Shown: positions 1 to 32,000, counted from the stretch's first letter. The stretch is DNA of 32,000 nucleotides from Candidatus Saccharimonadota bacterium (GCA_042852035.1 BAAFHK010000001.1:300001-332000); one strand, 5' to 3'. Numbers and translations: made by a program. The notes: generated from the sequence alone by a model not told the origin.

Positions 1-335
1 CTCGAATGTATAAGGAGCGAGTCAATATACTCGATGATTCCGTCCTTGTTGAAGAAGTGGCAGCGCCATGACTTGTGCCACTTATAGAAAAATGAGTCAC
101 AACGGGTCCTGACTTAGAGAATCTTCTTCGAGAGTATCTTTCGCAATTTTCTCCAGATATTGAGGCGTTAGTCCTAGGATGTACACACTATCCCATCATC
201 GCTGATACGGTGCAAGTGATATGGTATAGCATGTTTCATAGGCAACTGTCTCTTATTGATCCAGGAGTGGAGGCTGCCAAAAAGTTTGCGATTTGGTGAG
301 CTCGTCATTATTCATCATTCGGAAGTCACTTCTAA
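1..335 (+). CDS. murI: Glutamate racemase MurI, C-terminal part (5' end lies outside the window)
   Basis: Frame 3 is open from the window edge. With TGA=Gly it reads ...VAAPGLVPLIEKGVTTGPDLENLLREYLSQFSPDIEALVLGCTHYPIIADTV.... This contains the racemase GCTHYP active-site Cys motif. There are 3 in-frame TGA. Stop is TAA at 333-335. Confidence 0.85.
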
Positions 336-1971
336 CATAACTTCTCAGGTCTTCAACTAGATATCAGATTGCTATTCATACCTGAATTGGTTTTGCATCT
401 GGAAATATAGCTTGTATTGCATCTTCCCTCCCTTTAATGCTAAAGAAGAAATGTTTCGTGTTTGGAGATTTATAGGCAATAAGGTATCCTTTTGAGATAA
501 GATCCCAGAATAAGTCTCAGAAAGTTTCATGTCAAAGCGATTCTAGATACGGAACTCCTACTCGATTCGCAATAAGCTTATAAAGCGCACTTGGCTGGCG
601 GTATTTTGGGCCACGAAAAAATGCATCAAGGAGTCATCGAAGTTTATAATAAGGATCTTCCTTTTTTTTGTTTTCAGCTTCAGACTCGGATATGAATTGT
701 ATCTCTGCACCATATGGAGTATTTCAGAGTTTCATAAAGCCACTCAGGCTCATATTTGTAAAATTCTCATCGGTCATTTTTGACTTTGTTTCATTGATTG
801 CGATAGGATTTTTTGTGAGGTTTTCTGTCAACCATCATGAATCACTTACGGCTCATTTGTTTTTTAGGACGTAGCCAAAGTCAGGCATAAGATTTGAAAA
901 TACCGTAATGAGTTCCTTTTTTTCAGCATCACTTGTTGCATTCGGGTAGATGATATTCATGCCGATAATATCCCTCATGGCATCTACATTATTATACTGC
1001 TTCTTCTGCCACATTTTTTGGAGTATGCTTTCAGGTGTCTTTACTCTCCAGTCGATTTTATATACCTTCCCTTTGATGTGTAAGTCAGCATGATATATGA
1101 CGGCACCCGTGATGTGATCTTCGATTATTACATTTTCTATTTTAATTCAGGCCTTTTTTAGTGCAATCTCCATCTCGCCAATATTTTTTTTCGCATTTCG
1201 ACAAAGCTCCTCAATCTCAAGAACTCTTGGCCATGCAAAAAATGATTGTATAACCATCCATGCGTCTTCAACTTTCTCAGGGTCATCGAACATTCTATTG
1301 AGTACTCGAGTACATTCTTTAATGTCTTTGATGTGTTCTAGGGGTCCGAGTTCAAGTCAAAAAACTTTTCCAAGGTAATGAAGAAGTCTTGGAAATACGG
1401 ATGTAAAATATTTCGGACAATCTTTTTCTTTACAGTCATCGATGTTATTCGTAAGTCAAGAAATTATGAGTTTTTCTATCGCTTCTCAACGAGGCTTCTT
1501 TTTAAGTTTCGAGAATGAGTATCATGAACCATCAAGAATGGATACTTGTCTCGATGCAAATGCAATGAGAGAGGGATTATAAAGACTTGCTCTTAGTTCC
1601 TCTTGAAGTTTTTTTCACGTGTCTTCTGGTCTTCATCGTATGAGAAGTGTTTCCATGATATCTGCAATATTTGTTTCATCGATGTAGAGTGATCGAGAAT
1701 CATCAGGTTTGGTCTTTCGATGTTTATTGAGTTTGTTTAGAAAATCTCACCACGCACTCGGGTATTTGCTAAAAAATGACTTGAGTGATTTTGCTTTTGG
1801 AAGATAGGTTTCAAGTAAGACATGGAGATCTCCTCTATTTCTGAGTTCAACTAAATTTTTTACGGTATCTTCGACACTTCTTACAAGGTTTGTAGAGCTA
1901 TTTCTTGTGCTATTTCTCGAGGCATTTATATCTCCAAGACTAAATCGGTTGAGAGTGGAAAGAGCATTCAT
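253..1971 (-). CDS. RelA/SpoT-homologue protein with a synthetase-type nucleotidyltransferase domain, 572 aa, no recognisable HD hydrolase domain
   Basis: ATG at 1971 matches the ORF-track fragment 1747..1971. The frame stays open through many TGA to TAA at 253-255; I split every triplet by hand and found no TAA/TAG. The central region reads ...DWRVKTPESILQKMWQKKQYNNVDAMRDIIGMNIIYPN...NMSLSGFMKLGNTPYGAEIQFISESE. This resembles the RelA_SpoT motifs RxKxxxSxxxK, DxxGxR and EIQxRT. Confidence 0.55.
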
Positions 1972-2008
1972 AATTGATTTCTAAAAAAAATTCTATATAG
2001 ATAATTGT

Positions 2009-3277
2009 ATGATACTTATTTATTGAAAAGGGAAGGTTGGAATGGCTGTTGCCGACCTATGCGTTAGCCTTCAAATAGAGCATGAAATCAAGGATGATTC
2101 CGATGAGTTGGATTACTCGAGGTATGATTTTATCATTCCATCTCCAGGTATTCCATCGAGTCATAATGTATATAAATCATGAAAGGTCAAATCAGAACTT
2201 GATTTTGCTTATGAGTTTCTTCCAAAATCCTTTCATATTGTAGCAGTTACTGGAACGGATGGCAAATCCACAACATCTTGGATACTCTATGAATTATTGC
2301 GCCAAGAATTCTGAGTTGAAAAAGTGTATCTTTCATGAAATTTTGAGATTCCATTTTCACAAACAGTGAATGAAATCCTCAAAAAAAATCAAAAAAGATG
2401 ATATATTGTTCTCGAAGTTTCGAGCTTTATGGCATATCTCTTAAGCTCTTTTAAGGCTGATTATTCAGTATTTACAAATTTTAAGCCAGATCACCTAAAT
2501 TGGCATATTCATCTTCAGGATTATCTTGATTCTAAGATGAATCTTCTTTCTAGAACAAAAAAAGTCTCAATTCTCAATTCTCAGGTAGTATTGTTTGCAA
2601 ATAATAATTGATTAGATATTCATGTACCGTTAAATTCAAGAATTTTTTCTTCTGAATTGCAAATGAAAGGGTGATTAAAGGATTCGACAGATGGTGAAGA
2701 AATTATAATTTCCTGAAGGAAAAAGTATAAACTCTCTGAGACACGTTTTTCTGGGCTTCATAATGCTTCCAATATTCTCTCAGCGACAGTTGTAATGAAT
2801 GAAATGTGAATTTGCTCAAAACGAGTTTGAGGGTATTTAAAAAATATTCAATGACTCCCACATCGAATAGAATTTGTTACAGAGAAAAATGGAGTCTCGT
2901 TCATCGATGATTCAAAATCTACCTCATGCCAGAGCCTTATGGCAGCCCTTACTGCGTTTAATAAAAAAAAGCTCATTCTTATAGCAGGTGGCTCCGATAA
3001 ATGAGATACTTTCGATGGATTAGAAGCTTCTTTGAGTGAAGTTTCTTACTCTGTTCTTCTTTGAGCAACGAAAGATATATTGGCGTCAAAATGTGAGCAG
3101 GCATGAGTAATGTATACAAAAGCTGATTCTATGCTTGAGGCAGTGCAGCTAGCATGGTCAAAGTCAAAACACTGAGATACAATACTTCTTTCCCCATGAT
3201 GTGCATCATTTTGACTCTTTCGAGATTATCTCGATCGAGCAGAAAAGTTTAGAGATGCGATTAAAAAACTCCCTTAG
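2009..3277 (+). CDS. murD: UDP-N-acetylmuramoylalanine--D-glutamate ligase MurD (422 aa)
   Basis: The translation shows these motifs in order:
- MILIYGKGKVGMAVADLC (N-terminal GxGxxG)
- VTGTDGKSTT (Mur ligase P-loop)
- SGNFEIPF
- LEVSSFM
- FTNFKPDHLNWH
- GLPHRIEFV
- IDDSKSTS
- LLSPGCASFGLFRDYLDRAEKF
Same frame as track ORF 2429..2611. Many in-frame TGA. Stop is TAG at 3275-3277. Confidence 0.9.
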
Positions 3278-3299
3278 TGGGAGTTTTTTAATCGCATCT
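3253..3299. terminator. Perfect 21-bp stem with 5-nt loop between convergent genes; candidate bidirectional terminator
   Basis: agatgcgattaaaaaactccc (3253-3273), loop ttagt, gggagttttttaatcgcatct (3279-3299). The arms are exact reverse complements. The left arm encodes the last murD codons and the right arm contains the TAG stop (3298-3300) of the minus-strand gene. Confidence 0.6.
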
Positions 3300-6200
3300 A
3301 CTTTTGGAGTGGTTTTGCTATATTTGAAGCTCAAGTATTAGTGTTTCATGATCCTACTTGTGGTACTATATCAATAGGGGAGTCAAGTATTTCAAAGAGA
3401 GCGAACCAGCTTTGTCAGATATACTTACTCATAATCTGTTGTATTTTTTTCATATCTTCAGTTGCGTTCTGAGCATATAGTTCTGTCGCAATTTGATCTA
3501 TGAGTGGATACTCTTTTGAGCGTCCCTCATTAATAAGCTTGATGATATAAAGTTGACACTGAGCTAATTTTTGACCTCGTGTAACTACTGTATTTCAGCG
3601 ATATGATTCATAGTTTGTTCCTGCAATATCGATGAATGCTTCATCAGTAGTAATCTTTCATTTTCTACGCTCTTGGATAGCTAAGTCGATACAATAGTTA
3701 TCTGTTGCAACAAGTTTAAGATTTCTTGCATTCATGGTAAGGAGAAGCTTCTCGAATCTATCGGTAAGATTGTGTCTCGGATCTTTATCAATTGTTGCAG
3801 CATTGAGATCAACCAAGAGATATCAGAGATCCATTTTTTTCATCTTCTCAATCGTCGCCTCTGGTGATGGATCATAGAAGAAGTCGCGGAACGCCATGAG
3901 AAGGCTATCATCAAAATATCGGGTCGTATTTTTGTTTATGAGATAGGTCATGAATGTACCGATTCGATAGATTCATTTTGTGTTTTCATTATCCTTCGTT
4001 GGGTAAAGTACATTTTTGTAGACGGATTGCCCAATGTTTTCTATATCCTTCTTGAGAAGAGGATTTGTAGTGCTCCTATATTTTGTGAGAAAAGTATGAA
4101 GACTTTCGATAGGAATATCATTTATATTATTAGACTCAAAAAACTTCTTCATCTCTGTTGATTTGAGATTTTCTGTGACTCATTTGTATGCAAGATTTGG
4201 ATTCTTGAGGTTGAGCGTTGCTATAGGTAGAAGATAGTCACTTCGATAGATAAAAATGGACTCTTCCTGGGAAAGGGTATTGTATTTATATTCATTATAG
4301 TAGGCAGATTTAAGGTTATTCCATGCATGAGGGAATGATGATCGAATAAAGTATGTTGCTATAAGTATGAATAATACTATAGAAAGCGTAAATTTGTGAC
4401 CTAAATTCTCTGAATCCTTGAGCTCATCCTCACTATAATGAGTAAATGAATACGCTGAAAATCAGAGAATAAGAAAAAATCCAAAATAGATAATTATACC
4501 ATACCATACGATTCAAAATGCTGAAATAATAAAGAGAAAAGCATAGATTCACATAAATATGACAATATCTCTCAGGCGTTCTCAGATATGGTTATCCTTA
4601 GTATATGAATGAAAAAACCAGACAATTCATAAGTTTATGGCTATTAGTATGAGATATCAAAATGATCTAATATCGGAAGGATTCGGAATAAGCGTAAATT
4701 GAGCAAAAAACCCGTTAATTTCTCATCCAATTCATTTTGTGAAATAGTAAAGAGCCATAAATACCATCGCACTAATTCATCCGATAACAAAGCTGTATTT
4801 TCTCTTGCTTGGGATAAAGAGAACTAAACTTGGTATGAGGGCAAGAAATAGATATGTAATATCGGTAAATTCACCTGATTGGTTTTTTTGAAACGTAAGA
4901 TTAGCTGGAAGTTTTAGATAGTTGTTAAGTCCTTTTTCATATCCAAAATATCTTCAGGCATCTTCATTCTCACTTTTTCCATCTCAAGTCATCAGTTTTG
5001 ATGCTCGATTCTCTCGTTCTTTAATTTCTTCGGGTGTATAAATTTTCTTATAGTCGTACATGCTTTTTTCGACAGCACCAGCAAGAAAATTTGATATTGT
5101 AGGATGTTCAATTTTTGCTCTAATTACCTCATTTCCATTTTTTATAAGCCATGGAATACAGGTAATAACGGTTCCAATTAAGAAAATTACAGAGTAAAGA
5201 ATCCAATCAAGAAATATTTTTTTATAGTGAGAAGCTGAATTCTTCAGCTTTAGAGTCGCAAAAGCAATTGAAGCACATCAAATAATAAAGAGGGGTATTC
5301 CTATTGAATTCAGTACTGCTTGACTCTCTGGCATAGGGACATTCAGCATCTTCCAGAGGTTTAATTTCGTGAATACTCAAAGAAAAATTAAGAAGTATCA
5401 GATAAAGCCCCATAACGAAAGTGAAGTATACGTCAACCATCAAAGAATTCCAAGAATAAGCATCAGTGAAGTGAACTTTACCGTGAAGGTAAATCATACA
5501 AGAATTCCTATAACTCCTATTATTCCAATCTTTTCTTTCCTTTCCAGTCATTTCCAAACGTAAAATAAAAGAGCAATAGTACTAATCGAGAACGCAAAGT
5601 ATGCTGGATCAAGCTTCATGTCTTTCGCTTGTTGAAAGACGGTCATAGGCATTGCGTAGTAGAATACTCAAAGAAGAACTGGAAGGGAGATTATTGTTTT
5701 TTTTCAAGAATCCTCAAAAGCATATGAAAGAATAGAGATAACAAAAATTGTCGCTAAAATTCAGCCAAGCTGATTCATATAGAATGCTTGTGATGCATTA
5801 TATGAAAAGAGAAAGCCAGTCCCAGTAATAAGTTGCCAAGCATACATTCCTCAGCTTGTAATAAGTTGCTCTGTAGTTGCTATGATTTTCGGAAGGTTCA
5901 TATATACCCCTAAATCATCCCATCCAATTGGCATTGGTCGAATGACGTTTATGAGTGAAACACCAAGAAGGAGGGTGAAAATAATAAATCAAAACTCTAT
6001 CGAGAGGAGGTTTGGATTGAGTTTTTCAAGGAAAGTTCAATGAGTTTTATGATTTTCAATTTCTATATGGGTATCTTTGATTTCGTTATAGGTAAGCTTG
6101 AGTCATGGAAGAGCAATTAGTCCAAGTATACCAAGAATGATATAGAGCCCCATTTCATTATATACCCCAATCATTCAGAGAATAAGAAGAAAAAATGAAA

Positions 6201-6681
6201 ATATCGTAAATCAAAGTGTAATTTCTCAAGGTATCCGGAGTCGTTTATCAACCTCTTTCCAGTCTTTCTTTACGAGAGAAAAAAGAGTATACCCAGCCGA
6301 TCGAGTTAGTACGATAACTATTGCTGGATAAAATAGTAGGGCAAGGATGTGAAAAAAGAGCGTAATTGAACTTGCACTCGCTCGTGAGAGAAAAGGGCTT
6401 GAAGTCACTTCAGGAAGTCCCGTGTAAAAGATTGTAACAAGGAAGACATGAAAGAGTCCGATTCATATAATTCAAGGGAGTCCCAATCGAATTTTTTTAA
6501 CTCAGAAGGCAATACTCAATATCTTGTAGCCAGAGTAGATTATGGCAATGGTTGCCAGATATGGAAGAAAGCCTGTGGCAGTCTCAATATGGTTTATGCT
6601 ACTATAGAAATTACTGTAGTATATCCCTATGATGGCTACTGACCATACTATAAATGCGAAAGAAGAAATAAGTGACGGCAT
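3298..6681 (-). CDS. Very large polytopic membrane protein (1127 aa); possibly a GT-C-type glycosyltransferase or envelope assembly protein, function unknown
   Basis: A single frame (codon low positions = 1 mod 3) runs from ATG 6681 to TAG 3298-3300. A line-by-line triplet split found no TAA/TAG and dozens of in-frame TGA. Track ORF 6226..6408 is an internal piece. The N-terminal ~770 aa are rich in hydrophobic segments, e.g. FAFIVWSVAIIGIYY, ITLFFHILALLFYPAIVIVL, IRPMPIGWDDLGVYMNLPKII. The C-terminal ~330 aa look soluble. Confidence 0.6.
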
Positions 6682-6689: not shown

Positions 6690-8189
6690 TTAGGATATAT
6701 AAACATTTCGAATCATTTTAAATCATTTCTGAATAATTCTTTTATTTACCATGAGAAATATACACAGATACGTTATTAGTGCAATACTAATAGATAAATA
6801 ATTTGGTAGATTATCTGAGAACCGTTCTATGCCTAAGTGAAGTGCAAAGTATGTAATGGTTCAAAATATCATATTTTTCCAAAAATCCCATTTTTTCATA
6901 AATTCATATCGAATTCAGCATGCTTTTTGGGAAAGGTAAAAAAGGGGAATCCAAGATATTCATACTGCAAGTGCTGATCATTTGGCTCAAAAAAGATTAA
7001 TGAAGAGCAGATTGAGAATAATATTGATAAAAAGCGTAATAACGAGTATATGGGTTCTTTTTTTGATTTCTCCTGTTCCAGCAAGGACCTGAAATGCAAT
7101 CTGTCAAAGTATATTGAAGAGCAAGAATGGGGCTGAAAATTTTAGTATATCTCAAGATGCAGAAAATTTGTCTCAGAAGAATAGAGTGGTAATCTCATGT
7201 GAGTACTGAAAAAGAAAAAATGAAGTCCAGATTCAAATAATGCTAAAATATCACCAAAATTCACGAGTAAGAAAATCAATTTTTTCATGATTTCCCCTTC
7301 AAAAAAGTTCCGATATAACTGGAAACAAAAAACTCACAATTGGAAGAAGAAGCATGAATGGAATTCCGATAACTGAAAGATATGTTGAATAATATCATGC
7401 CTGCTCTGTTCAGAGTAAGTAAATAATGAGTTGCATATCAATCTGCGATAGGGTAGCTGATATATTTCCAGCAAGAAGTGTCGCTAAGGAATACTTCATG
7501 AAACTTCGTATAAGTGTAGAATCTTTCTTGAGTTTTACATGAAGAAGGTAGGGTACATAGTATTTTTTCCAGGTAACAAAAGATGAAAAAAGAATTCCGA
7601 TAAATAATCCAATAACCCATGCTATCATATAGTGCTCAGTGCTCCCATGGTCAGAGAAAAATAAAATACTTACACCAATAGCGGTTCAGAGGATTCTGGC
7701 AAATTCAGCTCATTTACTCAATTTAGTGTCTTGGATGGCGATAAGAAGACTCGTCCATATATGCATCATATTTATTCCTATAAAGAAAAAGCCAGCAATA
7801 CGTAGGATTGATATAACATCAGCATGGAAATAATGCATTGCAAGCCAAGGAGCAAGGAAAAATACTCAAAAATAAATAAAAAAGCTTGTTGATATTTGTA
7901 GTCGAAAAACAAATTGGAGCAAATACTTAGCACGTGCATAATCTTTCTCTACGAAAAGTTTTGGAAGAAAGAACTGGAGGCTTTCTGTACATCAAAGATC
8001 GTTATACATTGCAAGAAATGTAACGAAACTTATTACTCCATAGACCATACCAACTTCTTCGACGGAAAGATCCCTTGAAATAATCATCTTTATAAGATAT
8101 CCAAGCGGTCAAATAATGAAGCTAAAGGCATAGAGCCAAAATCCTTTGCGAATAAACTTCTCTGAGAGGGATTCTTTATTATTGAGCAT
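6690..8189 (-). CDS. MOP-superfamily flippase (Wzx / MurJ-YtgP-like polysaccharide biosynthesis protein), 499 aa
   Basis: ATG at 8189. The protein starts MLNNKESLSEKFIRKGFWLYAFSFIIGPLGYLIKMIISRDLSVEEVGMVYG.... It continues through track ORF 7410..7628 (MIAWVIGLFIG...LLAGNISATLSQIDMQLIIYLLGTEQAGYY). It is multi-TM throughout. I followed every codon to TAA at 6690-6692. Confidence 0.7.
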
Positions 8190-8194: not shown

Positions 8195-8872
8195 TTAGAT
8201 ATTGTAGGTTCCATGTGTAACGTCTGAGAGTATTTTTCCATCCCCAAAAGCAATAACTCTCTTTTTAAGAGCGTTAACAAGTCGATCATCATGAGTTGAT
8301 ATGACTATGGTTTTTCACTGTTCATTCAATTTAAGAAGTATATTGATTATGTCTTCAGCGTTTTTTGGGTCTAGGTTTCCTGTAGGTTCGTCACCAATAA
8401 TCATATCAGGATCATGAATAAGTGCGCGCGCAATTGCTGTGCGTTGTAGCTCTCCGCCGGAGAGTGATTCGATAAATTTATCCTTTTTTAAAAGAAGTCA
8501 GACCTGTGAGAGTACTTCAGGAACGCGCTTATGTATGGTTGCATTATCATAACCAGAAACTTCCATTGCAAAAGCAACATTTTCTTTTACTGTTTTGCGA
8601 GGAAGAAGTTTAAAGTCCTGAAATATTACCCCAATAGTTCTTCTGTATGATAAGAGCTCGCTTCCACTGAGCATATAAATATTATTTCCAAGGTGATCAT
8701 AGATTGCTCAATTTTTCGGCTTGAGCACCCCGATCATGCTTTTTATAACACTTGTTTTACCACTTCAAGAAGCACCTATGAAAAATAAAAATTCTCCAGG
8801 GTGTATTGTGAAATTTAAGTCACGAAGTATGGTTTTATTCCCATAAGCGAGAGAGGTTTTAGAGAAATGCAT
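8195..8872 (-). CDS. ftsE: Cell-division ABC transporter ATP-binding protein FtsE (225 aa)
   Basis: Translation:
- [41 protein letters not shown], with a Walker A Gly encoded by TGA
- [31 protein letters not shown]
- [32 protein letters not shown]
Stop is TAA at 8195-8197. Confidence 0.85.
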
Positions 8873-8873: not shown

Positions 8874-11800
8874 TTATTTAGGAAGAACAGTAAGAATTAC
8901 ATTTTTAGTATCTATTTTTACATTTGCATCGATAACCTTTATGACTATTCCATAGGTACCTTCTTTGAGTCCTGTAGTGTCTATGGGTACAACGAAACTA
9001 TCACCATTATTTGCAGAATAAATATTACTTCAATTCAGACTCACATTTACTTCCCTTACTCATGGTTCGACAGAAATATTGAATCTTAGGTTTGAGGTAT
9101 CCCCCTGATAGACACTCATATTTCATCAAGCAGGTCTTGTGAGTGTTATTTTTGGGGGAATGGAGATTGCTAGAGATGGAGAAAGCTGAGGGTTTGAGCT
9201 TGGGAAATTGAGGGATCAGCTCGTATGAATAGGGGCTGATCAAGTATTTGATGTCTCTGATTCCTCGAGAATTCATCAGGCAAGAGTTTTAACTTCACGA
9301 TATTTGTATCCATATTGATCTATAACCTCAAGGAGTATTTCATGGACTCCCGAGTCGAGGCTAATATTCATTCTTCCAGAACCATCCTTCTTCCCTTCAG
9401 AAGCTTGTAAAATCTTAGTTTCTCAATCAAACTTTAGCGACCATTCTTTAAACTCTCTATCTCAACTCCAGCTTCATTCTACAATCTTTTTCTGAGAACT
9501 TGTATTATTTCAGATATTAAGAATCTTAAGCTTCATGGTAAAATTTCACGGTCATGAAGGTCGTTCACAAGGTTCAATTTGTCATCCAGCACTACCTATG
9601 CTACTAAGGAAAGCATTCTTCCATGCCGGATCGTAGCCATCAATAATTGGGTTTCCAACAGGAATATTCACTGTTCCTATAGATCACTCTGGAGTATTTT
9701 CAGATACTGGACCATTACAGAGCGTATCGACTTCTACTGATTTAAATCACTCATCTGCTTGCGTAAGTTTAACCGCCATAATAGTTTGAATTTTTTGATC
9801 GTCTGGAGTCGATTCTATGGCAAGCCTTCCGCTTGATTTCACTATTGTATATTTATAAATACCTTCTGGCTCTTTCCAGTCTTCCTTTGCAAGTGATTTA
9901 TGGGCAAATTCCATAAAAGGTTTCCATATGCCTGCGGCACAATTGAGACCATCGCAGGTTCATTTTGTTTCTTTCCCATCCACGTTTCCTGCCCAGACAA
10001 CTGTTGTAATTTGAGGAGAATATCATGCTGTCCACAGGTCACGAGGGAGGATTTTGTCATCTCCCATTTCTTTGTTTGAGGTTCAAGTTTTTGCTGCAAC
10101 CCTTCGGCCATTAACTGTGAGAGCTGATCTCCAAAAGCCATCAGGTCTTGCATCTGGATTTGAGAGTATTGTAGTAATAATATAAGAAGCTGCTGGTGAA
10201 AAAATTGGTTTTGGATTTTCTTCAATTTTATGTTCTTCAACTACAGTACCATCACTATCAACAATCTTTTCTATAGCATAGAGATCTCGTTTTATTCAAA
10301 GATTTGCGAAAACACTGTACGCCTGCATAAGGTCTATTGGCCTTACTTCAGCGGTTCAAATTGCCATAGGAGCTCAGTATCATGCATTTTCTTTGAGTGT
10401 TGTGAGTCAGATGCTACGTCAAAACTTCACCACTTCTTCCTCCTTTCCTGCTAAATAAAACATTTTAACGGCAGGAATATTTCTTGAGTATGCTAGTGCT
10501 TTTTCGAGGGGCATCACTCATTTAAATTTCGTATCATAATTGCTAGGTGTATAACTGGAGAAGTTTGTTTTGACATCAGCTACTGGACTGGCAGGACCAA
10601 TTGGGTTTTTGGAAATCGCAAGGGAATATACAATTGGCTTAAACGATGAACCAGGTTGACGCTCCTTTGTGGTCATATTATTGTTTCATCAGTTCTCCGT
10701 ATCAAAGTAATCAGGACCTCATACCATTGCAAGAAGTGCTCCATTTTTATTGTCCATACTCACGAGTGCGGCACTTTTTGCTCCATAGGTTTTACTATTG
10801 ATTTCCGCCTGCTTTTTTACAAGTTCTTCTGCTTTTTCTTGAAGTTTTGGATCAAGGGTTGTATATACTTTGAGTCATTGTGTAATATCGATATCTTTTC
10901 CATATTTAGCTTCAAGATACTCTTTTATGTACATGACAAAATATGGGTATTTTATATTTTCTGCGTACTTTCGGAATTCAAATTCAATACCATCATAAAT
11001 AATTTTCTTCAAAGTTGGACCATCAATTTTTCCATCTATATACATTCTTAATCATACAAAATCTTTACGTCCCCAAGTGTACTCAAGTCAGTATCGGATA
11101 GTACCTCAAGAGTTTGTAATGTCATCTTTTATGAGAATATCACCAAAGAAATCAAGGAGATTTTCCTGATTTACTACTGAACATCAGCTAGAGTCTGGGC
11201 TAAAGTCAGTACTGCGAATATATTCTGCATTTATTCAGCAAATTTTCACGCTATCATTATCTGTTTCAAGTGTAATTCATGAAAGGTATTGCTTAAAAGT
11301 AGTATACATTTTTCCAAACTCTGATCGAGTTTCAATAGACTCAAGAGATATTTTTGATGCTGGATCATCAAGGGGGTATACAATAACTTCCCCCATAAGG
11401 CGATTTCTATGAAGATAAGGAGAGTAATAGGTTGGTCATTTTGGCAATGAAGCAAGTATAGTTGCTCAGAGTGGTCATACTTCACTGGCTCATTTTCAAA
11501 AATAAGTTCTTGAAGCCTCCTCAACTCCATTTGCATTATGTCAAAAAGAGATGGTATTTAGGTACATTTCCAGAATCTTCTCCTTTGAATAATTTTTATT
11601 GAGCTGATAAGAGAGATATGCTTCCTTAATCTTTCGTTTTATTGAACGCTCTTTAGAAAGAAGGGTGTAACTAATAAGTTGCTGTGAGAGAGTCGACGTA
11701 CCCTTAATTCTATCGGTTTTTCACGTTACATAGTTGATTCCAGCTCGCGCAAGTCACTTGAGGTCAATTCAAGGGTTTTCAAAAAAAGTTTTATCCTCCG

Positions 11801-19492: not shown

Positions 19493-19527
19493 AAAAAAGT
19501 AAAGAAAAATCCACCATTTGGTGGATT
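19493..19527 (-). terminator. Rho-independent terminator of the AAA ATPase gene, overlapping its stop codon
   Basis: aatccacc / ggtggatt is an 8-bp stem (19508-19515 and 19520-19527) with a 4-nt loop. On the minus strand it is followed by TTTTTCTTTACTTTTTT. The TAA stop (19526-19528) lies in the stem. Confidence 0.6.
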
Positions 19528-22918: not shown

Positions 22919-23020
22919 ATTTAGAGTGAAAAAGGGGCAGTGATGAAAAGCGTCATTAAATCGCACATACATTATGGAGAAAAGGAAAAATTGCAACAAG
23001 ATTGCGTGTTTTTTCAAGCC

Positions 23021-23048
23021 TTGATTTTTCGAATCTTTCTGATATACT
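23021..23048 (+). promoter_or_regulatory. Candidate promoter of the Nudix gene
   Basis: TTGATT (23021-23026), 16 nt, TATACT (23043-23048). It lies 33 nt upstream of ATG 23082. The leader is AT-rich and has no SD. Confidence 0.5.
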
Positions 23049-23081
23049 CTGGGAAGTTTTCATTTATTATTTAAAAATACC

Positions 23082-23531
23082 ATGACAGAACTCCATGAAA
23101 AGAGTGCTGGCGGTATAGTGTATAGAAAAAACTGAAGTGAAATTCAGGTGCTCATGCTAGCATGGAAAAATGCAAAGAACCAACTTGAGTATGTCCTTCC
23201 GAAAGGACATATTGAATGAGATGAGACAGCAATGGAAACGGCTCTCAGGGAGATTTCCGAAGAGACTTGACTTGCTCTGCCTGATCTCAAAGTGGTGAAG
23301 TTCATGAACAAGATAGCCTATTCATTTATTGCTGGATATCTCGAAGGTGCTCCAATTATTCATAAAGAGGTTTCTCTTTTTCTCGTTAAGTATAACTGAA
23401 ACGCTGAGCCTCGTCCACGTCGCGCAGAGCGTTTTGTGTGATACAAATGGTTTACTCCAGATGAATTGAAAAATGTTTTCTTGAAACCTGATGTTGTTGG
23501 ATTAATAGAAAAGAATAAGCATTTTATGTAA
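23082..23531 (+). CDS. Nudix hydrolase (149 aa)
   Basis: The Nudix box GHIEGDETAMETALREISEETGL fits Gx5Ex7REUxEExGU, and two of its Gly are TGA. Stop is TAA at 23529-23531. Confidence 0.85.
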
Positions 23532-23589
23532 GAGTGCCAATTTTTGATTGATTCGTTTGATTTTCGGGCATAATTCTATATGCTCACCG

Positions 23590-23598
23590 TGTTATAAT
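23590..23598 (+). promoter_or_regulatory. Extended -10 promoter element, near-leaderless
   Basis: TGtTATAAT (23590-23598) lies 9 nt before ATG 23608. Confidence 0.5.
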
Positions 23599-23607
23599 TT
23601 TTTCCTT

Positions 23608-24069
23608 ATGGATTTTTCCTTCAAAAATAATCAAATTGTAATCGAGTCAGAAAAAAAGACTATTCTTCTACAGAACGACTCTCTCAATGTGGATTGACTT
23701 ATTATTGATGTTGCAGGGGAGTATGAGAAATCAGGGTTCCTTGCCTATGCTCATGAGTCTGCAGATATTCGAATCTATCAAATGCGAGTGGAAGGATACA
23801 CTGTCGGATTTATACCAAATAATATTCCTGATTTAAATTCTGAGCAATTGGATTTTCTTGGAGATCTTGATGTTCTCGTTATGCCTTCATCCAAAGCTAC
23901 TCTACCACTTCTTGAAAAGATCGAACCAAACTTTCTTCTTTCCTACTGAGAGCTAGCTCATGAGCTCGCCACATCGCTCTGATTTTCAGAGCCTCAGCTC
24001 CAAAAATATAAACTTCGAGATATTGATCTTTCTGGGGAAAAAATGGGATTTGTTCTTTTGGGAGAATAA
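23608..24069 (+). CDS. Hypothetical protein (153 aa)
   Basis: The frame is open with 3 in-frame TGA: MDFSFKNNQIVIESEKKTILLQNDSLNVDGLIIDVAGEYEKSGFLAYAHE...DLDVLVMPSSKATLPLLEKIEPNFLLSYGELAHELATSLGF.... It has its own promoter and terminator. I recognise no motif. Confidence 0.5.
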
Positions 24070-24234: not shown

Positions 24235-25242
24235 ATGCGTAGAACTTATCGTACTATTCTTGCTCTATTATTTCTCTTTTCAGGTTTTATCTGAGTTGAG
24301 CAGACTGCTGTAGCTACAGAATCACATAGTGATGTTGTGATAGTGAAAGAAAGTCCTGAAAAAGAAATGATTGTAAATCCAGAGGATCATAAATCTAAAA
24401 TTCCTCAGGGTGAACACAGTGATTCCCATGATCTCAGTGAGGAGCATGAGTGACCTCATATTCCTGCGCCAAAAGGAGATATTATTGAAGGGTGGAATAT
24501 TGGTTCGCTCCATATCACCAATACTGTTTTTTCCACTTGGATATTTATGGTAGTCCTCTTTGTTATTGTAGCTATAATGAATCTTGCTATCCGTACTGAG
24601 AGTCTTCCTCGAATAAGGGCTTTTGGGCTTGATATTATCAATCGTATTTATCTCTATGCAAAAAATCTCCTCTGAGATGAAAAGATAGCTAAAAACTACA
24701 TCTGGCTACTTTGAGGACTTATGATTGTAATCTTTCTTGGAAATCTTACGGGTCTTTTATTTGACTGGCTTGTACTTGTATCGAAAGATGAATGGCTCGG
24801 ACATTATCTTCGTCCTATATATTCTGACCTCTCAACAACACTCGTCTTTTCACTTACGGTAATTCTTGTAGCTCAATTAACTGCACTCTACCTCAAGTGA
24901 CCTGTGAATCATCTTTCACATTACCTTTGGAATTTTCATGGAGATACTACTGCTGAAAAAATTGTTTGAGTCTTTGTTTGATGGCTCCACTTTGTAGGTG
25001 AATTTATACGTATTTGATCTCTCTCAATGCGTCTGTTTCTTAATATTTTTGTGTGAGCGATACTTATTGGTGTTGTAGTATATGTTGGTGAACTTATCCC
25101 GTCATTTCATACTTGAGTTTTTCGAATCCTCGCACTTCCTTTTTGGTTTTTCGAACTTCTCGTTGCTTTCTTGCAGGCATATATATTTATGACACTTTCA
25201 TCATTGTACATAAAAGAATCTCTGCCTACAAATCATCACTAG
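24235..25242 (+). CDS. atpB: F0F1 ATP synthase subunit a (335 aa) with an N-terminal extension
   Basis: Conserved core: ...GSLSMRLFLNIFVGAILIG...LALPFWFFELLVAFLQAYIFMTLSSLY, containing the essential Arg motif SxRLFxNxxxG. The frame was followed codon by codon. Stop is TAG at 25240-25242. Confidence 0.9.
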
Positions 25243-25325
25243 ACGCTAGAAATGAAGGGCTTTGCCTTTCTTCCTGGTTTTTAGTACTGCAAACCGGATA
25301 CTTCCTCTCCGTCCCAGTTACTTAA

Positions 25326-25547
25326 ATGAACTTCAGGTATTACTTTTTAACATTTATTATTATGAATGGAATTGCACTTTTAGGTGTTATTTGATCTGGA
25401 CTTGGTATTGGTCTTATTGGTATGGGTGCTATGCAAGCTATTGGTCGAAACCCAACTGCTTCTGGTGATATCAATGCAAAAATGCTTACTGCTATTGCTC
25501 TCTGTGAAGTTCCAGGTCTTCTTGCTTTCGCATCACTTTTTCTTTAG
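25326..25547 (+). CDS. atpE: F0F1 ATP synthase subunit c (73 aa from ATG 25326, or 61 aa from the in-frame ATG 25362)
   Basis: ...MNGIALLGVIGSGLGIGLIGMGAMQAIGRNPTASGDINAKMLTAIALCEVPGLLAFASLFL. It has the GxGxGxG helix 1, a polar loop (RNP), and the carboxylate Glu in helix 2. Stop is TAG at 25545-25547. Confidence 0.85.
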
Positions 25548-25561
25548 TAGTATATTACTGA

Positions 25562-25607
25562 TTCAAGTGTGTACGATTAAAGCTTTATAAAATAGTACGC
25601 ACTTGAA
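25562..25607 (+). other. Long intercistronic stem-loop between atpE and atpF
   Basis: ttcaagtgtgtac (25562-25574) pairs with gtacgcacttgaa (25595-25607). That is 13 bp with one G-U pair and a 20-nt AT-rich loop containing the palindrome ataaagctttat. Confidence 0.5.
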
Positions 25608-25625
25608 CTCATAATTTTTCAAAAT

Positions 25626-26102
25626 ATGAATACCATCTTTGATTTCTCATCATTTATAATTCAGGCGATTAACTTTGCGATTGTTGCTTTTGTGCTACGT
25701 GGCTTTATCTTTAAGCCGTACATGAAGTATCTCGAAGAAGAGGCAGCAAAACGCGCTCTTCTAGAAGAAAAGCTTGCTGAAAGTGACTCTATCCTTGCTT
25801 CCGCACAGGAGGAAAGTGAGAACATTATCGAGAAGGCTCGAATTGATGCAAAAATGATGTGAGCTGAAATTGTTGAAAATGCTCGAAAGGAGTGAGTAGA
25901 AATTACTACTCGTGCTCATGCTGATGCAGATGCTGCTCGAGCAAAGTGATTTGCTCAAGTTGAGCAAGAGCGTAAAGCAATGACTGAAGAATTAAAGGGA
26001 AGAGTGCTAGATGTTGCTCTCAAGTTGAATGAAAAACTATTTTGAAAGAATGAGTCAAATGTTGAATTTCTGAAAAAAAATGCAAATTCTGTCGAGTTTT
26101 AA
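25626..26102 (+). CDS. atpF: F0F1 ATP synthase subunit b (158 aa)
   Basis: An N-terminal TM segment (FIIQAINFAIVAFVLRGFIF) is followed by a long charged helix (YLEEEAAKRALLEEKLAESDSILASAQEESENIIEKARIDAK...). The position in the operon fits. Stop is TAA at 26100-26102. Confidence 0.75.
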
Positions 26103-26135
26103 TGTATTTTAAACAATAGTACAAAAGATTCTTTT

Positions 26136-26480
26136 ATGTCAAAGACACAACTTCATTCATATCCTCGAGAAACTCTTGAGCATTTACTTAAGATACTTAA
26201 ATCCTACAGAAATGGACTTAAGCAAATTGGAAAAAGAGCTCAGCTCGAAGATCCTTCTTCTCCATTACCAGTACGTGCTTTTGTAGAGATTCACTCGGGA
26301 ATGAATGAGACTGAATGACTTCGCTATGCGAATGCTGTTATTCAGTATGCATTTCCTACATATACTTGAGAATCACCCCTGGTAGTCATAAATGATGACC
26401 TCAAAGGTGGTGCCCGTGTATTTGTAGGAGATGATATGGTCGATGTTACTATGCAAAAATTTGAAAGTCTTTTACACTAA
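26136..26480 (+). CDS. atpH: F0F1 ATP synthase subunit delta (OSCP), unusually short at 114 aa
   Basis: The operon position fits. The C-terminal segment ...PLVVINDDLKGGARVFVGDDMVDVTMQKFESLLH matches the delta C-terminal pattern (v.p.liGG..v.vGd.v.D.S....L). Stop is TAA at 26478-26480. Confidence 0.6.
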
Positions 26481-26507
26481 TTTCCTTATCAATTATCCTC
26501 TGTTATT

Positions 26508-28031
26508 ATGTCTCATTCTGCTGTTGATCTCGCACAAAGTCTTATTAAAGAACTTGAGATAAAAATTGATTCCGTAGATCTCTCTCCTGATAGAGTAAAT
26601 GCAGGTACTGTTGTGTACCTTGGTGATGGTATTGCAAAGATTGTAGGACTTCGTGATGTTGCCTACAATGAAGTAGTTGAGTTTGATTCAGGAGCTCGTG
26701 GTGTTGCCATGAATCTTGAAGAGCACTACGTATGAGTTGTGGTGCTTTCAGGCTTTTCTACGATTCGCGAGGGTATGATTGCAAAATCAACAAAAAGAAT
26801 TCTTGAAATTCCTGTCGGTGAATCACTTCTTGGTCGCGTTGTAGATCCACTCGGGAATCCAGTTGACGGTCATGGGGATCTTAATACAAAGGAGTATCGT
26901 CCAGCAGAATTTGTTGCAACGGGAGTAATGAGTCGTAAACATGTTCATGAGCCTCTTGCTACTGGTATCAAGGCAATTGATTCTCTTGTTCCTATTGGTC
27001 GAGGTCAACGTGAGCTTATTATCGGAGATCGCCAAACAGGAAAGACTCAAGTCGCTATCGATACTATCCTGAATCAAAAGGGGAAAAACGTAAAATGTAT
27101 TTATGTTGCCATTGGTCAGAAAGATTCAAAAATTGTTGCTATTTCCGAAGAGCTTAAAAAAGCTGGAGCAATGGATTATACTATCATAGTTTCAGCAGGT
27201 GCATCTTCTCCTGCAGCAATGCAGTGGCTTGCTCCTTATGCTGGAGCAGCAATGGGTGAATATTTTATGTTCAAAGGAGAACATGCGCTCATTATTTATG
27301 ATGATCTTACAAAGCATGCAAATGCGTATAGAGAAATGTCACTTCTCCTTCGTCGCCCACCTGGTCGTGAAGCTTATCCTGGTGATGTATTTTACCTCCA
27401 TTCTCGTCTCCTTGAGCGAGCTGCAAAACTTAGTGATGAACTTGGTGCAGGATCAATGACGGCTCTTCCTATTATCGAGACACAGGCTGGAGATGTATCA
27501 GCGTATGTTCCAACAAATGTAATTTCAATTACTGATGGACAAATATTTCTTGAATCAGGGCTCTTTAATGCTTGAGTAAAACCAGCTATTAACGTAGGTC
27601 TTTCAGTGTCACGTGTTGGTTGAGATGCTCAGACGAAAGCTATGAAAAAGAATGCTGGTACATTAAAACTTTCCCTTGCTCAATATCGCGAACTTGAGGC
27701 TTTTGCTCAATTTGCCTCAGATCTTGATCCTGATACTAAAAAGCAACTTGAACGAGGAAAACGAATGGTAGAAATCCTGAAGCAGGATGTTTACTCTCCA
27801 ATTCCTTTTGAAAAACAGGTGTGTATTATTTTTGCTGGAAATAGCGGATATCTTGATAAGCTTGATGTTAAGGGAATTAAAAAATTCGAGCACGATCTTT
27901 ATCTTGGTCTTGAAAGAGAGGAGAAAATTCTTGCCTCAATTCGTGAAAAAGGAGAGTTTAGTGACGAAACTAAAAAGGCTCTCACAGAGTATCTCGATGA
28001 ATTCATAAAAATGTACGAGGATAAAAAATAG
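26508..28031 (+). CDS. atpA: F0F1 ATP synthase subunit alpha (507 aa)
   Basis: Three track ORFs (26508..26735, 26739..27575, 27642..28031) share one frame and are joined by TGA at 26733, 27573 and 27621. The P-loop is GDRQTGKT. The joins read ...[27 protein letters not shown].... Stop is TAG at 28029-28031. Confidence 0.97.
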
Positions 28032-28060
28032 TATCCCATCTTCTAGCGAACTAATACTTT

Positions 28061-28972
28061 ATGCCATCCTGAAAAGAAATTAAATCTCGAATTAAATCTG
28101 TAAAAAATACAGGAAAAATAACTAAAGCAATGGAGCTTATTTCTACTGTAAAGATGAAAAAGGCTCAGGAAGCTGTAATAGGTCTTCGCCCATTTGCTCT
28201 TGCAACGCTTTCTATACTCGGGAAGGTATCATCTGATGAAAGCATCCTCTGATCATATTCTATAGTGCCGAATTCAACAAAGGAACTTATTATTGTGGTT
28301 GCTTCGCAAAAATGACTTTGTGGCTGATACAATACCAATGTTTTTAAGAAAACTACAGAATATATTCGTGATGATAAAGATACTCCATTTACACGAGAAT
28401 ACCACTATATAACTGTAGGGAAGCGGGCTCGAGATTTCATTCTTCGTACTGGGCAGCACCTTCTTGCTGATTTTTCAGATGAAATGAAAGATCCACTTAC
28501 ACCTGCGGAATCTCGCCGAATGGTTCGTACTATTGTTGATGAGTGGAAAAGTGGAAAATACTCAAAAGTTTCCATTATTTACAATCATTATGTTTCAGCC
28601 ATTTCTCAGATTCCAACTGTAAAAACTCTTTTTCCAATTAAATGAGATGAAATATTTGGTTTTCTTGAGAAATATGCTTGAGCAAAGTATGTATCAGACC
28701 ATTATGATGGGGCATATACCATTGAGCCAGATAGAGAGACAATAATTGATATGACCATACCACTTATATTGGATGGGATTATTCATGAGACACTCCTTGA
28801 GGCTAAAGCTTCAGAACACGCGGCTCGTATGGTAGCAATGAAAAATGCTAAGGATAGCGCGAATAAAAAGGCAAATGGTCTTACCCTTATCTATAATAAG
28901 ACTCGACAGGCCGCCATAACAAAGGAGGTTTCTGAAATTGTTTCAGGGGTGGAAAGTATGAAAGATGTTTAG
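28061..28972 (+). CDS. atpG: F0F1 ATP synthase subunit gamma (303 aa)
   Basis: [37 protein letters not shown]...ASQKGLCGGYN (TGA at 28313 and 28325)...[16 protein letters not shown]...[19 protein letters not shown]. The end matches track ORF 28751..28972. Stop is TAG. Confidence 0.93.
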
Positions 28973-29011
28973 AGTTAGAAATGATTATTGAAAAATTAAA
29001 AGCCAAAAAAT

Positions 29012-29039
29012 TACTCCTACTTGTATGGGGGTATTTTTT
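29012..29039 (+). terminator. Weak candidate terminator after atpG
   Basis: tactcc (29012-29017) pairs with ggggta (29028-29033), 6 bp including one G-U pair, with a 10-nt loop. It is followed by TTTTTT at 29034-29039. Confidence 0.4.
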
Positions 29040-29047
29040 GATATAAT
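29039..29047 (+). promoter_or_regulatory. Extended -10 promoter of the sixA-like gene (leaderless)
   Basis: TGaTATAAT (29039-29047), then ttcttt (6 nt), then ATG 29054. Confidence 0.55.
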
Positions 29048-29053
29048 TTCTTT

Positions 29054-29605
29054 ATGTTTAGAAATACGAAAAAGAAACAGATTATATTTATCCGGCATGC
29101 AAAAGCGTTTGATATTGCTCTCTGGAAAGGGATAGACTATGATAGACCACTTGTGCCAGCTTGAGAAAAATCAAATGTCATTATGGCAAATTATCTCAGA
29201 CTTATTTGACTTAAACCAGATAAAATAGTATCAAGTCCTGATTTGCGTGCAAAATCAACAGCAATCGTTTTGGCAAGCAAGCTATGAGTAGAGCATATTG
29301 AATACCATGATTCACTTTATAGTAAGCAGTCACCGATTCTGAGAAATCCTTTTGAGGAACATTTTAAGATCATTAAAATGACCCCGAAGTCGTGTCGTAC
29401 GTTAATGGTAGTTTGACATAATCCAGATCTGACTCGAGTTGCCCAATCTCTTTCTGGGGATGATACCCCCTCTATGAAAAAAGGATCAGTCATAGTTCTT
29501 TCTCTTCCAGATAATATGGATTGGAAAGATATTAGACTTGGGAGCTTAAAGTTTGTATATTATCTTACGCCACAGTTTTTAAGTCTGGAGCAACTTGAGG
29601 GCTAA
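29054..29605 (+). CDS. sixA: SixA-like phosphohistidine phosphatase (histidine phosphatase superfamily), 183 aa
   Basis: IIFIRHAKAFD...DRPLVPAGEKSNVIMANYLRLIGLKPDKIVSSPDLRAKSTA...LMVVGHNPDLTRVAQSLSG. This fits the RHxxA...RPLtxxG...SPxxRAxxT...GHxP pattern. Stop is TAA at 29603-29605. Confidence 0.75.
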
Positions 29606-29624
29606 TATTCAAGAAATATTTTTA

Positions 29625-30047
29625 ATGAATAAAATTTTAGTTTACACTGACGGATGATCTCGATGAAATCCCTGACCATCAGGTTGTGGGGTTTATATAA
29701 CTGACTCAAATGGAGTCCCAATCGAGAGAAGGCATAAATTTATAGGTTATGCTACTAATAATATTGCAGAATATACCGCTGCATTTCTTGGAATCAATCG
29801 AGCTATAGAGCTCTGAGCTGAAGAGATACTCTTTTATGCGGACTCTGAGCTTCTCATTAAGCAATTAACATGAGTGTATAAGATTAAGAATCCAGAGTTA
29901 AAAAAAATCGCATGAGAAATAACTACCCGAATACAGGATTGGTGAGGTAAAATTAGCTTTACTCATATTTTCCGAGAACAAAATAAAGAGGCTGATAGAC
30001 TTTCGAATGTTGCAATGGATGAAGGAAAAAAACTTGCAAAACTCTAG
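29625..30047 (+). CDS. rnhA: Ribonuclease HI family protein (140 aa)
   Basis: MNKILVYTDGGSRGNPGPSGCGVYI...GYATNNIAEYTAAFLGINRAIELG...LFYADSELLIKQLTGVYKIKN...FTHIFREQNKEADRLSNVAMD. Four of the Gly in TDGGSRGNPG and neighbouring positions are TGA. Stop is TAG at 30045-30047. Confidence 0.88.
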
Positions 30048-30084
30048 AAAATATACATCTTACTACTGTACTTTTTTATAAAAT

Positions 30085-30960
30085 ATGACAACTTTAGCTA
30101 TTACTTGTTGATACTTTAACCCAATTCATCCGGGTCATATCGAGTGTTTTGAGCTTTCAAAAACAGAAGCTGGTGGAGATGAGTTATGGGTGATCGTTAA
30201 TAACGATCTGCAAGCAGAACTCAAGCGTTGAGTTAAAAGTTTTCAAGATGAAAAACTTCGCATGCAAGTGGTGAGTTCTATAAAATGAGTTGATCGAGTT
30301 ATTCTTTCTATTGATCAAGATGGTAGCGTGTGTAAATCTCTTGAGATGGCTATAAAGGAGGCAAAAGATAGTTGAAAATATGAGAAAATTATTTTTACGA
30401 AGGGCTGAGATCGTTTTGCTTCAAATATTCCAGAGGCAGAACTTTTGCGTCGCGAAGGGGTTCCTGTTATGGATTGACTCGGAGCAAAAACACATAACTC
30501 TAGTGATTTTTTGAAAAAGGTTCAGAGTAAAGAAGATGAAAATGATTTAGAGAAAAAAATTAGTGAACTTCCAAAAAATATTACAGAATGAAGGTATCTT
30601 GAGGTGGGAAATCGCCCTTGGGGAGTATACTATGTTCTCGAAGATCTTCCTCTCTATAAGGTTAAAAAAATTATTGTTAACCCATGACAGAGACTCTCCC
30701 TTCAGTCACATGAAAAAAGAAGTGAGCACTGGACGGTTGTTTCTGGTATTGCTACGGTCGATATACGACATTCAGATTTTAAAGAGATTGAGCAGATTAA
30801 AGTTCTTCGCCCAAACGAGGGGTGTCATATTCCTGTAGGTTTTCTTCATCGACTCTCAAACATTCATAGTGATCCACTTGTTGTTATTGAGGTGCAATGT
30901 GGCGAATATACTTGAGAGGATGATATTATTCGATACGAAGATGATTTTTGAAGAAAATAG
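30085..30960 (+). CDS. Fusion protein: N-terminal cytidylyltransferase-like domain plus C-terminal cupin (type II mannose-6-phosphate isomerase-like) domain, 291 aa
   Basis: N-terminal part: LAITCGYFNPIHPGHIECFELSK...DELWVIVNND...VDRVILS, the HxGH nucleotidyltransferase motif. C-terminal part: RPWGVYYVLEDLPLYKVKKIIVNPGQRLSLQSHEKRSEHWTVVSGIATV...IPVGFLHRLSN...IEVQCGEYTGEDDIIRYEDDFGR, resembling the ManC C-terminal cupin. Stop is TAG at 30958-30960. Confidence 0.75.
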
Positions 30961-30977
30961 ATTTTCCTTGGAACCAT

Positions 30978-31002
30978 AAAAAGAGGGAATAACCCTTTTT
31001 TT
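30978..31002 (+). terminator. AT-rich hairpin with T-run; candidate terminator
   Basis: aaaaagaggg (30978-30987), loop aataa, cccttttttt (30993-31002). The GGG/CCC core is extended by A-U pairs and one G-U pair. Confidence 0.55.
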
Positions 31003-31004
31003 AT

Positions 31005-31032
31005 TTGATTTTCCTTCTCTTATATCTATAAT
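31005..31032 (+). promoter_or_regulatory. Dedicated promoter of atpD
   Basis: TTGATT (31005-31010), 16 nt, TATAAT (31027-31032). ATG 31059 lies 26 nt downstream. No SD. Confidence 0.55.
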
Positions 31033-31058
31033 CCGCGCGTTCTTTATACGTTTTTTTT

Positions 31059-32000
31059 ATGGCTCACACTGGTATTATTACAAAAATTATTGGCGTTGTT
31101 ATTGACGTCGAATTCAAGGATGGATATATTCCAGCCATCTATGAGGCTCTTGAAGTTGAAGGAGCTCCTCATAAACTTGTGCTTGAGGTTCAACAACAGC
31201 TCGGAGATAATATTGTCCGAACAATTGCGATGAATCCTGTCGATGGAGTGAAACGATGACTTTCGGTAGTAGCGTCTGGGGCTCCAATTTCTGTCCCAGT
31301 TGGAGAAAAAGTTCTCGGTCGTATGTTTAATGTTCTTGGTGATCCTATCGATGAGATGGAAGCCCCAAAGACAGAAAGCAAGCTTCCTATTCATCGAGCT
31401 TCTCCAGCATTTGAAGACCTTTCTACGAAGACAGAAGTATTTGAAACAGGAATTAAAGTAGTTGATCTCATTTGTCCGATGCTTAAGTGAGGTAAGGTTG
31501 GACTCTTTGGATGAGCATGAGTAGGAAAAACAGTTATCATGCAAGAACTTATTCATAATATTGCAAGTGAACATGGAGGGTATTCTGTTGTTGCTTGAGT
31601 TGGGGAGAGAACTCGTGAGGGAAATGATCTCTACCATGAGATGAAAGATAGTGGTGTAATCGATAAAACAGCAATGGTATTTGGTCAAATGAATGAGGCT
31701 CCAGGGCCTCGTGCTCGCGTTGCTTTAACTTGACTTACTATGGCGGAGTATTTCCGTGATGTAGAAAAGCGAGATGTTCTTCTTTTTGTGGATAATATTT
31801 TCCGTTTTACACAAGCAGGTTCTGAGATTTCAGCCCTTCTTGGTCGCATACCATCAGCAGTATGATACCAGCCAACTCTTGCCACAGACATGGGTACACT
31901 TCAGGAGCGTATTGCTTCAACGAAGAATGGTTCTATTACATCTGTACAAGCAGTATATGTTCCGGCAGATGATCTTACTGATCCAGCTCCGGCAAATACT
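31059..32000 (+). CDS. atpD: F0F1 ATP synthase subunit beta, N-terminal 314 codons (3' end outside the window)
   Basis: [19 protein letters not shown].... The Walker A GGAGVGKT is encoded as gga TGA gca TGA gta gga aaa aca (31509-31532). Further on: ...[12 protein letters not shown]...[32 protein letters not shown].... There are 7 in-frame TGA in the visible part. Confidence 0.97.

Follow-up and report, generated by a model that had tools for sequence, protein, structure and literature searches.

Gene content and reading frames of the window

The window considered here is the whole stretch of DNA that was analysed, 32,000 bases (GC content 36.2%) of contig BAAFHK010000001.1 (positions 300001-332000; assembly GCA_042852035.1). 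The feature in question is the codon UGA, written TGA in the DNA, within the protein-coding genes of this stretch. The window carries 29 back-to-back genes, 27 of which are complete; murI is truncated at its 5′ end by the left edge and atpD at its 3′ end by the right edge. In these genes UGA is read through, occupies glycine (Gly) columns and is synonymous with the GGN codons of relatives, and the gene ends are marked by UAA or UAG.

Under the standard bacterial code (code 11), the window holds 22 open reading frames (ORFs) of at least 100 amino acids (aa), the longest of 279 aa. The share of the window lying in ORFs of 150 aa or more is 10% with code 11 and rises to 93% once TGA is treated as a sense codon. 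Reading TGA as sense restores the long ORFs, as expected from a first-pass annotation of the window which held that the standard code cuts its genes at TGA. The non-overlapping gene set obtained in this way fills approximately 93-95% of the window. Its 29 genes comprise 9901 codons, including 309 in-frame TGA codons (3.1%) and no in-frame TAA or TAG. The Gly content is 7.6% of residues with TGA included, falling to 4.5% if TGA is left out.

The 28 gene stops consist of 17 TAA and 11 TAG. The first-pass annotation had listed 30 genes and 18 TAA stops. The extra gene was not found, a difference which is immaterial, and its TAA count was one too high; its 11 TAG stops and the absence of TGA from the gene ends stand. 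When the genes are aligned with those of relatives, both sequences extend as far as the TAA or TAG stop and conservation persists past the last TGA, which argues that TGA is not terminating at the ends of genes. The TGA coordinates that had been singled out in the first-pass annotation (31512, 31518, 28313, 28325, 14078, 14084, 14087, 27573, 27621, 15358 and, on the minus strand, 10083-10085) are each a TGA triplet in the frame assigned to them.

Proteins in which TGA was masked as X matched Pfam domains end to end across these codons. Methyltransf_5 was matched over positions 3-309 of 309, ATP-synt (gamma) over 2-285 of 285 and tRNA-synt_2d over 3-246 of 246. Further matches spanning TGA were to Ribosomal_L1, ATP-synt_ab, Transgly and Transpeptidase, the DNA_pol3_beta domains and the RecR domains. 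The genes of the window, with their in-frame TGA codons, are as follows.

3-335, plus: murI-like glutamate racemase, C-terminal part; 3 TGA, stop TAA; weak Asp_Glu_race Pfam match, 31% identity to E. coli MurI
253-1971, minus: 572-aa protein with a weak RelA_SpoT-like region; 16 TGA, stop TAA
2009-3277, plus: murD (Mur ligase); 17 TGA, stop TAG; Mur_ligase_M and Mur_ligase_C
3298-6681, minus: 1127-aa polytopic membrane protein; 38 TGA, stop TAG; no Pfam family
6690-8189, minus: MurJ or polysaccharide-synthesis-type flippase; 19 TGA, stop TAA; Pfam match
8195-8872, minus: FtsE-like ABC ATPase; 4 TGA, including those in the Walker A motif GxSGxGKT
8874-12137, minus: class A penicillin-binding protein (transglycosylase and transpeptidase); 48 TGA, the Gly of KTGTS being TGA 10083-10085
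12149-13795, minus: LytR_CpsA_Psr family protein; 17 TGA, stop TAA; Pfam match
13979-14902, plus: rsmH (16S rRNA m4C1402 methyltransferase); 9 TGA, with 14078, 14084 and 14087 in TLGLGGH
14948-15307, plus: FtsL-like small membrane protein; 3 TGA; assigned by its position after rsmH, no Pfam match
15310-15900, plus: recR; 3 TGA, with 15358 in LPGIGEK
16106-16801, minus: rplA (ribosomal protein L1); 1 TGA, in PHGTGK
16948-17262, plus: barstar-like inhibitor; 1 TGA
17326-18201, minus: polysaccharide deacetylase; 8 TGA
18248-19441, minus: sugar-phosphate nucleotidyltransferase with hexapeptide acyltransferase (GlmU-like); 24 TGA
19526-20677, minus: AAA / DUF4143 ATPase; 21 TGA, 72% of its own Gly codons
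20745-21764, minus: pheS; 12 TGA
21797-22918, minus: dnaN (beta sliding clamp); 8 TGA; query for the related loci
23608-24069, plus: small metallo-beta-lactamase-fold-like protein; 3 TGA
24235-25242, plus: atpB (F0 subunit a); 10 TGA
25326-25547, plus: atpE (F0 subunit c), 73 aa; 1 TGA, in the GxGxGxG helix motif
25626-26102, plus: atpF (F0 subunit b); 4 TGA
26136-26480, plus: probable atpH (delta subunit), short form; 2 TGA; assigned by operon position, kept in relatives, no Pfam match
26508-28031, plus: atpA; 3 TGA, namely 27573, 27621 and one more
28061-28972, plus: atpG; 6 TGA, with 28313 and 28325 in GLCGG
29054-29605, plus: histidine-phosphatase-like protein, between atpG and atpD; 4 TGA
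29625-30047, plus: RNase H; 7 TGA, three of them in TDGGSRGNPG
30085-30960, plus: cytidylyltransferase-like domain fused to a mannose-6-phosphate-isomerase-type cupin; 10 TGA
31059-32000, plus: atpD, cut by the window end; 7 TGA, with 31512 and 31518 in the Walker A motif GGAGVGKT

An ORF at 25250-25672 (plus strand) that appeared conserved in relatives was rejected as a wrong frame lying over the real atpE. Rfam gave no match in the window at gathering thresholds.

The effect of the standard code is also visible in public data. A Logan contig of 4393 bp (L051, run DRR350542), found by an exact-protein search with a 129-aa C-terminal fragment of AtpA, is 100% identical over its full length to window positions 24629-29021. 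In its public standard-code calls atpA is broken into three ORFs (75, 277 and 129 aa) and mere scraps remain of atpG and atpB, so that the earlier warning that a standard-code annotation of the contig is wrong holds for gene calls already deposited. The first-pass annotation had atpA split in three; its three TGA codons produce four segments, three of them of callable size, and three are called publicly. The same type of search with a 278-aa code-11 fragment of AtpA gave no match, and viral contigs contained no exact match to a 50-mer taken from the right edge of the window.

Interruption of nearly every gene under code 11 would also be expected if the standard code applied and the genes were pseudogenised or error-ridden, or if UGA were a site of selenocysteine insertion or programmed read-through. 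This explanation is vanishingly improbable. Damage would have to be restricted to TGA, which accounts for all 309 interruptions with none due to in-frame TAA or TAG, and would have to fall on Gly columns. It would also have to recur, since the same codon use is found in 41 independent assemblies (described below) and in the identical contig from an independent run. As for selenoproteins or read-through, 3.1% of codons far exceeds any such usage.

The amino acid specified by TGA

Sixteen E. coli K-12 orthologues were locally aligned to the window proteins with TGA masked as X, which keeps the alignments unbiased towards any residue. At the 114 aligned TGA codons the E. coli residue is Gly in 58 cases (51%), followed by Ala (12), Thr (7), Glu (6) and Leu (6). 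Tryptophan (Trp) and cysteine (Cys), the residues which the first-pass annotation had set against Gly, occur at none of the 114. The background frequency of Gly in the aligned E. coli sequence is 8.7%, against which 58 of 114 has a binomial P of 2.5e-31. For comparison, the GGN codons of the window meet Gly at 67% of positions, and its TGG codons meet Trp at 7 of 16.

In the proteins of highest conservation every aligned TGA falls on an E. coli Gly: AtpD (7/7, both Walker A glycines included), AtpA (3/3), RecR (3/3), FtsE (4/4) and RplA (1/1). The agreement is partial in RsmH (7/9), PheS (7/12) and MurD (6 of the 15 aligned). The invariant Gly sites proposed in the first-pass annotation for AtpD, AtpA and RecR are borne out. 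Those proposed in MurD and RNase H are weaker than had been stated: the two TGA codons of SPxCASFx in MurD meet Ala and Asp, and the first TGA of TDGGSRGNPG in RNase H meets an E. coli Ser.

A closer comparison was provided by a search of the GTDB r232 species representatives with DnaN as query, which yielded 41 related loci (L010-L050). The window was compared with these loci codon by codon in 233 high-scoring segment pairs of at least 50% identity, giving 67,550 codon pairs. TGA codons of the window face GGN in 65.3% of pairs and TGA in 20.3% (together 85.6%), the rest being mostly Ala or Ser. They face TGG in none of 1761 aligned pairs. In the opposite direction, TGA codons of the relatives face TGA in the window in 47% of pairs and GGN in 35%. 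The comparison covers 179 TGA sites of the window, and at 136 of these GGN is present in at least one relative. That TGA is freely exchanged for GGN but never for TGG is the mark of a synonymous pair. TGG of the window faces Trp in 84% of pairs and TGA in 0%, in keeping with the earlier statement that TGG is still used for Trp.

Ten proteins, with 15 Pfam domain families, were rescored with TGA translated as Gly, X or Trp. Gly gave the highest summed score, 2065.7 bits, ahead of X (1867.6) and Trp (1788.3). It scored above Trp in all 15 families, with a total margin of 277 bits. Individual examples are the Transpeptidase domain of the penicillin-binding protein (Gly 103, X 75, Trp 67), Methyltransf_5 of RsmH (Gly 294, Trp 266.5) and NTP_transferase of the GlmU-like protein (Gly 113, Trp 77). 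Gly is favoured over both X and Trp in the sums, and the E. coli, related-locus and Pfam comparisons agree in supporting the central claim of the first-pass annotation that TGA specifies Gly.

The same comparisons bear on code 4, in which UGA specifies Trp, as in the Mycoplasmatales, the Entomoplasmatales and several insect endosymbionts. Code 4 restores the long ORFs equally, because its stops, as in code 25, are TAA and TAG only, and the low GC content of the window (36%) is typical of organisms that use it. The resemblance to the code-4 systems of Mycoplasma, Spiroplasma and the insect endosymbionts extends to the change of UGA from stop to sense and to a small AT-rich genome. The difference lies in the amino acid, here Gly and not Trp, and it makes code 4 extremely unlikely for the window. 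Trp is found at 0 of the 114 TGA codons aligned with E. coli and TGG at 0 of the 1761 pairs in relatives. The Pfam total with Trp falls below even that of the masked X (1788 versus 1868 bits) and 277 bits under that of Gly, and Trp would ruin the invariant Walker A, KTGTS and GLCGG motifs.

Lineage, code variant and decoding

All 41 related loci are titled Candidatus Gracilibacteria, ‘Candidatus Peribacteria’ metagenome-assembled genome (MAG), Candidatus Altimarinus or Patescibacteria, and none is titled Absconditabacteria. All 41 require TGA as a sense codon, among them the complete genome CP060226.1 with its Peribacteria label. Relatives share synteny with the window over approximately 20 kb. 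The closest relatives reach identities of 81% for DnaN, approximately 90% for AtpA and approximately 92% for AtpD, values which indicate that none of the GTDB r232 species representatives is this organism. Judged by these sequence similarities, the organism is placed well inside a sampled Gracilibacteria clade, and the contig adds a Gracilibacteria species beyond those representatives.

The ‘Candidatus Peribacteria’ deposits are among L010-L012, L014, L019, L036, L038-L040 and L043, together with CP060226.1. Apart from L019, a fragment of 3.7 kb whose DnaN is without TGA, the loci with this label are clearly TGA-sense and fall with Gracilibacteria in DnaN similarity. As these Peribacteria-labelled MAGs read TGA as sense, the NCBI label may mislead the choice of translation table.

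The first-pass annotation had assigned the window to a lineage of Gracilibacteria or Absconditabacteria (SR1) type. It is right in this, and the choice is narrowed to Gracilibacteria by the titles of the 41 loci and by the two arginine (Arg) codons CGA and CGG. An extended code, with CGA and CGG read as Trp besides UGA as Gly, has been reported for Absconditabacteria, and the reading of CGG as Trp for some Gracilibacteria (Shulgina & Eddy 2021, PMC8629427). The SR1 type had been left open, and Absconditabacteria share with the window both the reading of UGA as Gly and a place in the Candidate Phyla Radiation. It is very unlikely that the window uses the extended code, as CGA is a major Arg codon in it. 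CGA has a frequency of 113 per 10,000 codons, compared with 79 for TGG, and faces Arg in 81% of pairs with relatives. CGG is rare, at 13 per 10,000 codons, and faces Arg in 90% of pairs. Trp is absent among the residues listed for either codon, and the label Absconditabacteria is borne by 0 of the 41 loci. With CGA and CGG still specifying Arg, the window uses plain code 25.

The preferred reading, held at a probability of about 0.96, is that the window derives from the chromosome of an uncultured member of the Gracilibacteria (BD1-5) which uses code 25, in which UGA specifies Gly, UAA and UAG are the stops, UGG specifies Trp and CGA and CGG specify Arg. The code of SR1 and Gracilibacteria, NCBI translation table 25, was reportedly described by Campbell et al. 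and by Rinke et al. in 2013. The window resembles other table 25 systems in its reading of UGA as Gly, its UAA and UAG stops, its use of UGG for Trp, its low GC content and its Gracilibacteria (BD1-5) host. There is no difference in kind from these systems, although UGA is used more heavily in the window than in its closest relatives.

In the standard model for both code 4 and code 25, loss of release factor 2 (RF2) is combined with a tRNA bearing the anticodon UCA. In the organism of the window, a dedicated tRNA-Gly with anticodon UCA would decode UGA, and RF2 would have been lost, both steps being proposed from the lineage and not from this sequence. It is proposed that, with RF2 lost, UGA would no longer act as a terminator. 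The Gly identity elements expected in a tRNA-Gly(UCA) are G1:C72, C2:G71, G3:C70 and U73. The RF2 gene prfB is absent among the genes of the window; the remaining approximately 1 Mb of the genome lies outside it.

The reassignment of UGA to Gly has been predicted for both SR1 and Gracilibacteria (PMC4032931). It was confirmed in a proteomic study of a BD1-5 bacterium, in which 97 peptides were unique to UGA as Gly, 3 to UGA as Trp and none to UGA as stop (Hanke et al. 2014, PMC4032931). It has been reported that tRNA-UCA-Gly is the expected decoder, and that Gracilibacteria-labelled genomes which lack such a tRNA carry RF2 instead (Shulgina & Eddy 2021, PMC8629427).

Several points weigh against the assignment of the window to code 25. 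A search of the window and the 41 related loci with ARAGORN gave no tRNA, and the decoding machinery is presumed from the lineage rather than seen. There may also be a low level of dual reading, with termination or Trp misincorporation at UGA, the code being read here from DNA alone. In the comparison with E. coli, 49% of the TGA sites meet a residue other than Gly, and single sites are not individually proven. Such a proportion is expected at protein identities of 25-40%, where the GGN codons of the window itself meet a residue other than Gly at 33% of positions.

The recoding of UGA to Gly is not new. It has been known since 2013, with proteomic evidence from 2014, and so would not surprise a specialist; the value of the contig is mostly practical. 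Pipelines that apply code 11 shatter the genes of the contig, and code 4 would set Trp at 309 Gly positions. Flagging the contig as code 25 mends its annotation, the estimates of binning quality and homology searches.

Uneven use of UGA and features of the neighbourhood

UGA is the most used Gly codon in the window, with 41% of all Gly codons, and its use is uneven between genes. Its share is 4% in rplA, 7% in atpA, 9% in atpE and 21% in atpD, versus 40-72% in most other genes (Fisher P = 1e-12 for rplA, atpA and atpD combined versus the remaining genes). The same ranking is found in relatives, with 1% in rplA, 2% in atpD and 5% in atpA versus 20-37% for the genes at the opposite end. GGT is favoured in the highly expressed set (42% versus 13%). 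This pattern suggests translational selection against UGA in highly expressed genes.

The use of UGA also varies with base composition. In the 42 sequences formed by the window and the 41 loci, the UGA count of DnaN is negatively correlated with GC content (Spearman rho = -0.78, P = 8e-10). The window, at 36% GC, has 8 UGA codons in DnaN versus 1-6 in its closest relatives at 41-43% GC. The rise of UGA at low GC is consistent with neutral synonymous change from GGA to UGA under AT mutation pressure.

A tentative reading, somewhat short of an even chance, is that UGA is fully reassigned in this clade but remains a second-class Gly codon, decoding by tRNA-Gly(UCA) being slower or more error-prone than that of GGN. 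A possible cause of the poorer decoding is wobble of U34 between UGA and UGG. If UGA were second-class in this sense, selection on expression would oppose the AT pressure from GGA to UGA, and the reassignment would still bear a measurable fitness cost. The avoidance of UGA in highly expressed genes is a possible handle on the cost of a reassigned stop codon.

Other features of the window concern the arrangement of its genes. The stretch of 690 bp upstream of dnaN (22919-23607) is without a convincing gene, and a gap of approximately 0.6-1.7 kb is present there in relatives too. Gene orientation changes at 22.9-23.6 kb, the genes being mostly on the minus strand to the left and all on the plus strand to the right. 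An origin of replication was tested for at this strand switch and is not supported, with 5 matches to the DnaA box versus 9.4 expected, no GC-skew switch and no dnaA gene.

The ATP synthase operon is split between atpG and atpD (28973-31058), where the histidine-phosphatase-like and RNase H genes are placed. The same interruption is found in several of the closer relatives, such as L010, L014 and L032. The cytidylyltransferase-cupin gene (30085-30960), a third insert present in the window alone, is missing from each of the 41 loci and has the appearance of a recent insertion.

The barstar-like gene (16948-17262, plus strand) adjoins rplA. A gene 36-47% identical to it occupies the same place in relatives, and the window shows no barnase gene. 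A metagenome scan with the 572-aa RelA_SpoT-like protein gave a single contig, L052, of 1.9 kb and 64% identity. The 1127-aa membrane protein (3298-6681, minus strand) matches no Pfam family with TGA either masked or translated as Gly. It has homologues of 45-46% identity in L016 and L022, and is located in a cell-envelope cluster beside the MurJ-like flippase, the FtsE-like ATPase and the class A penicillin-binding protein (PBP1).

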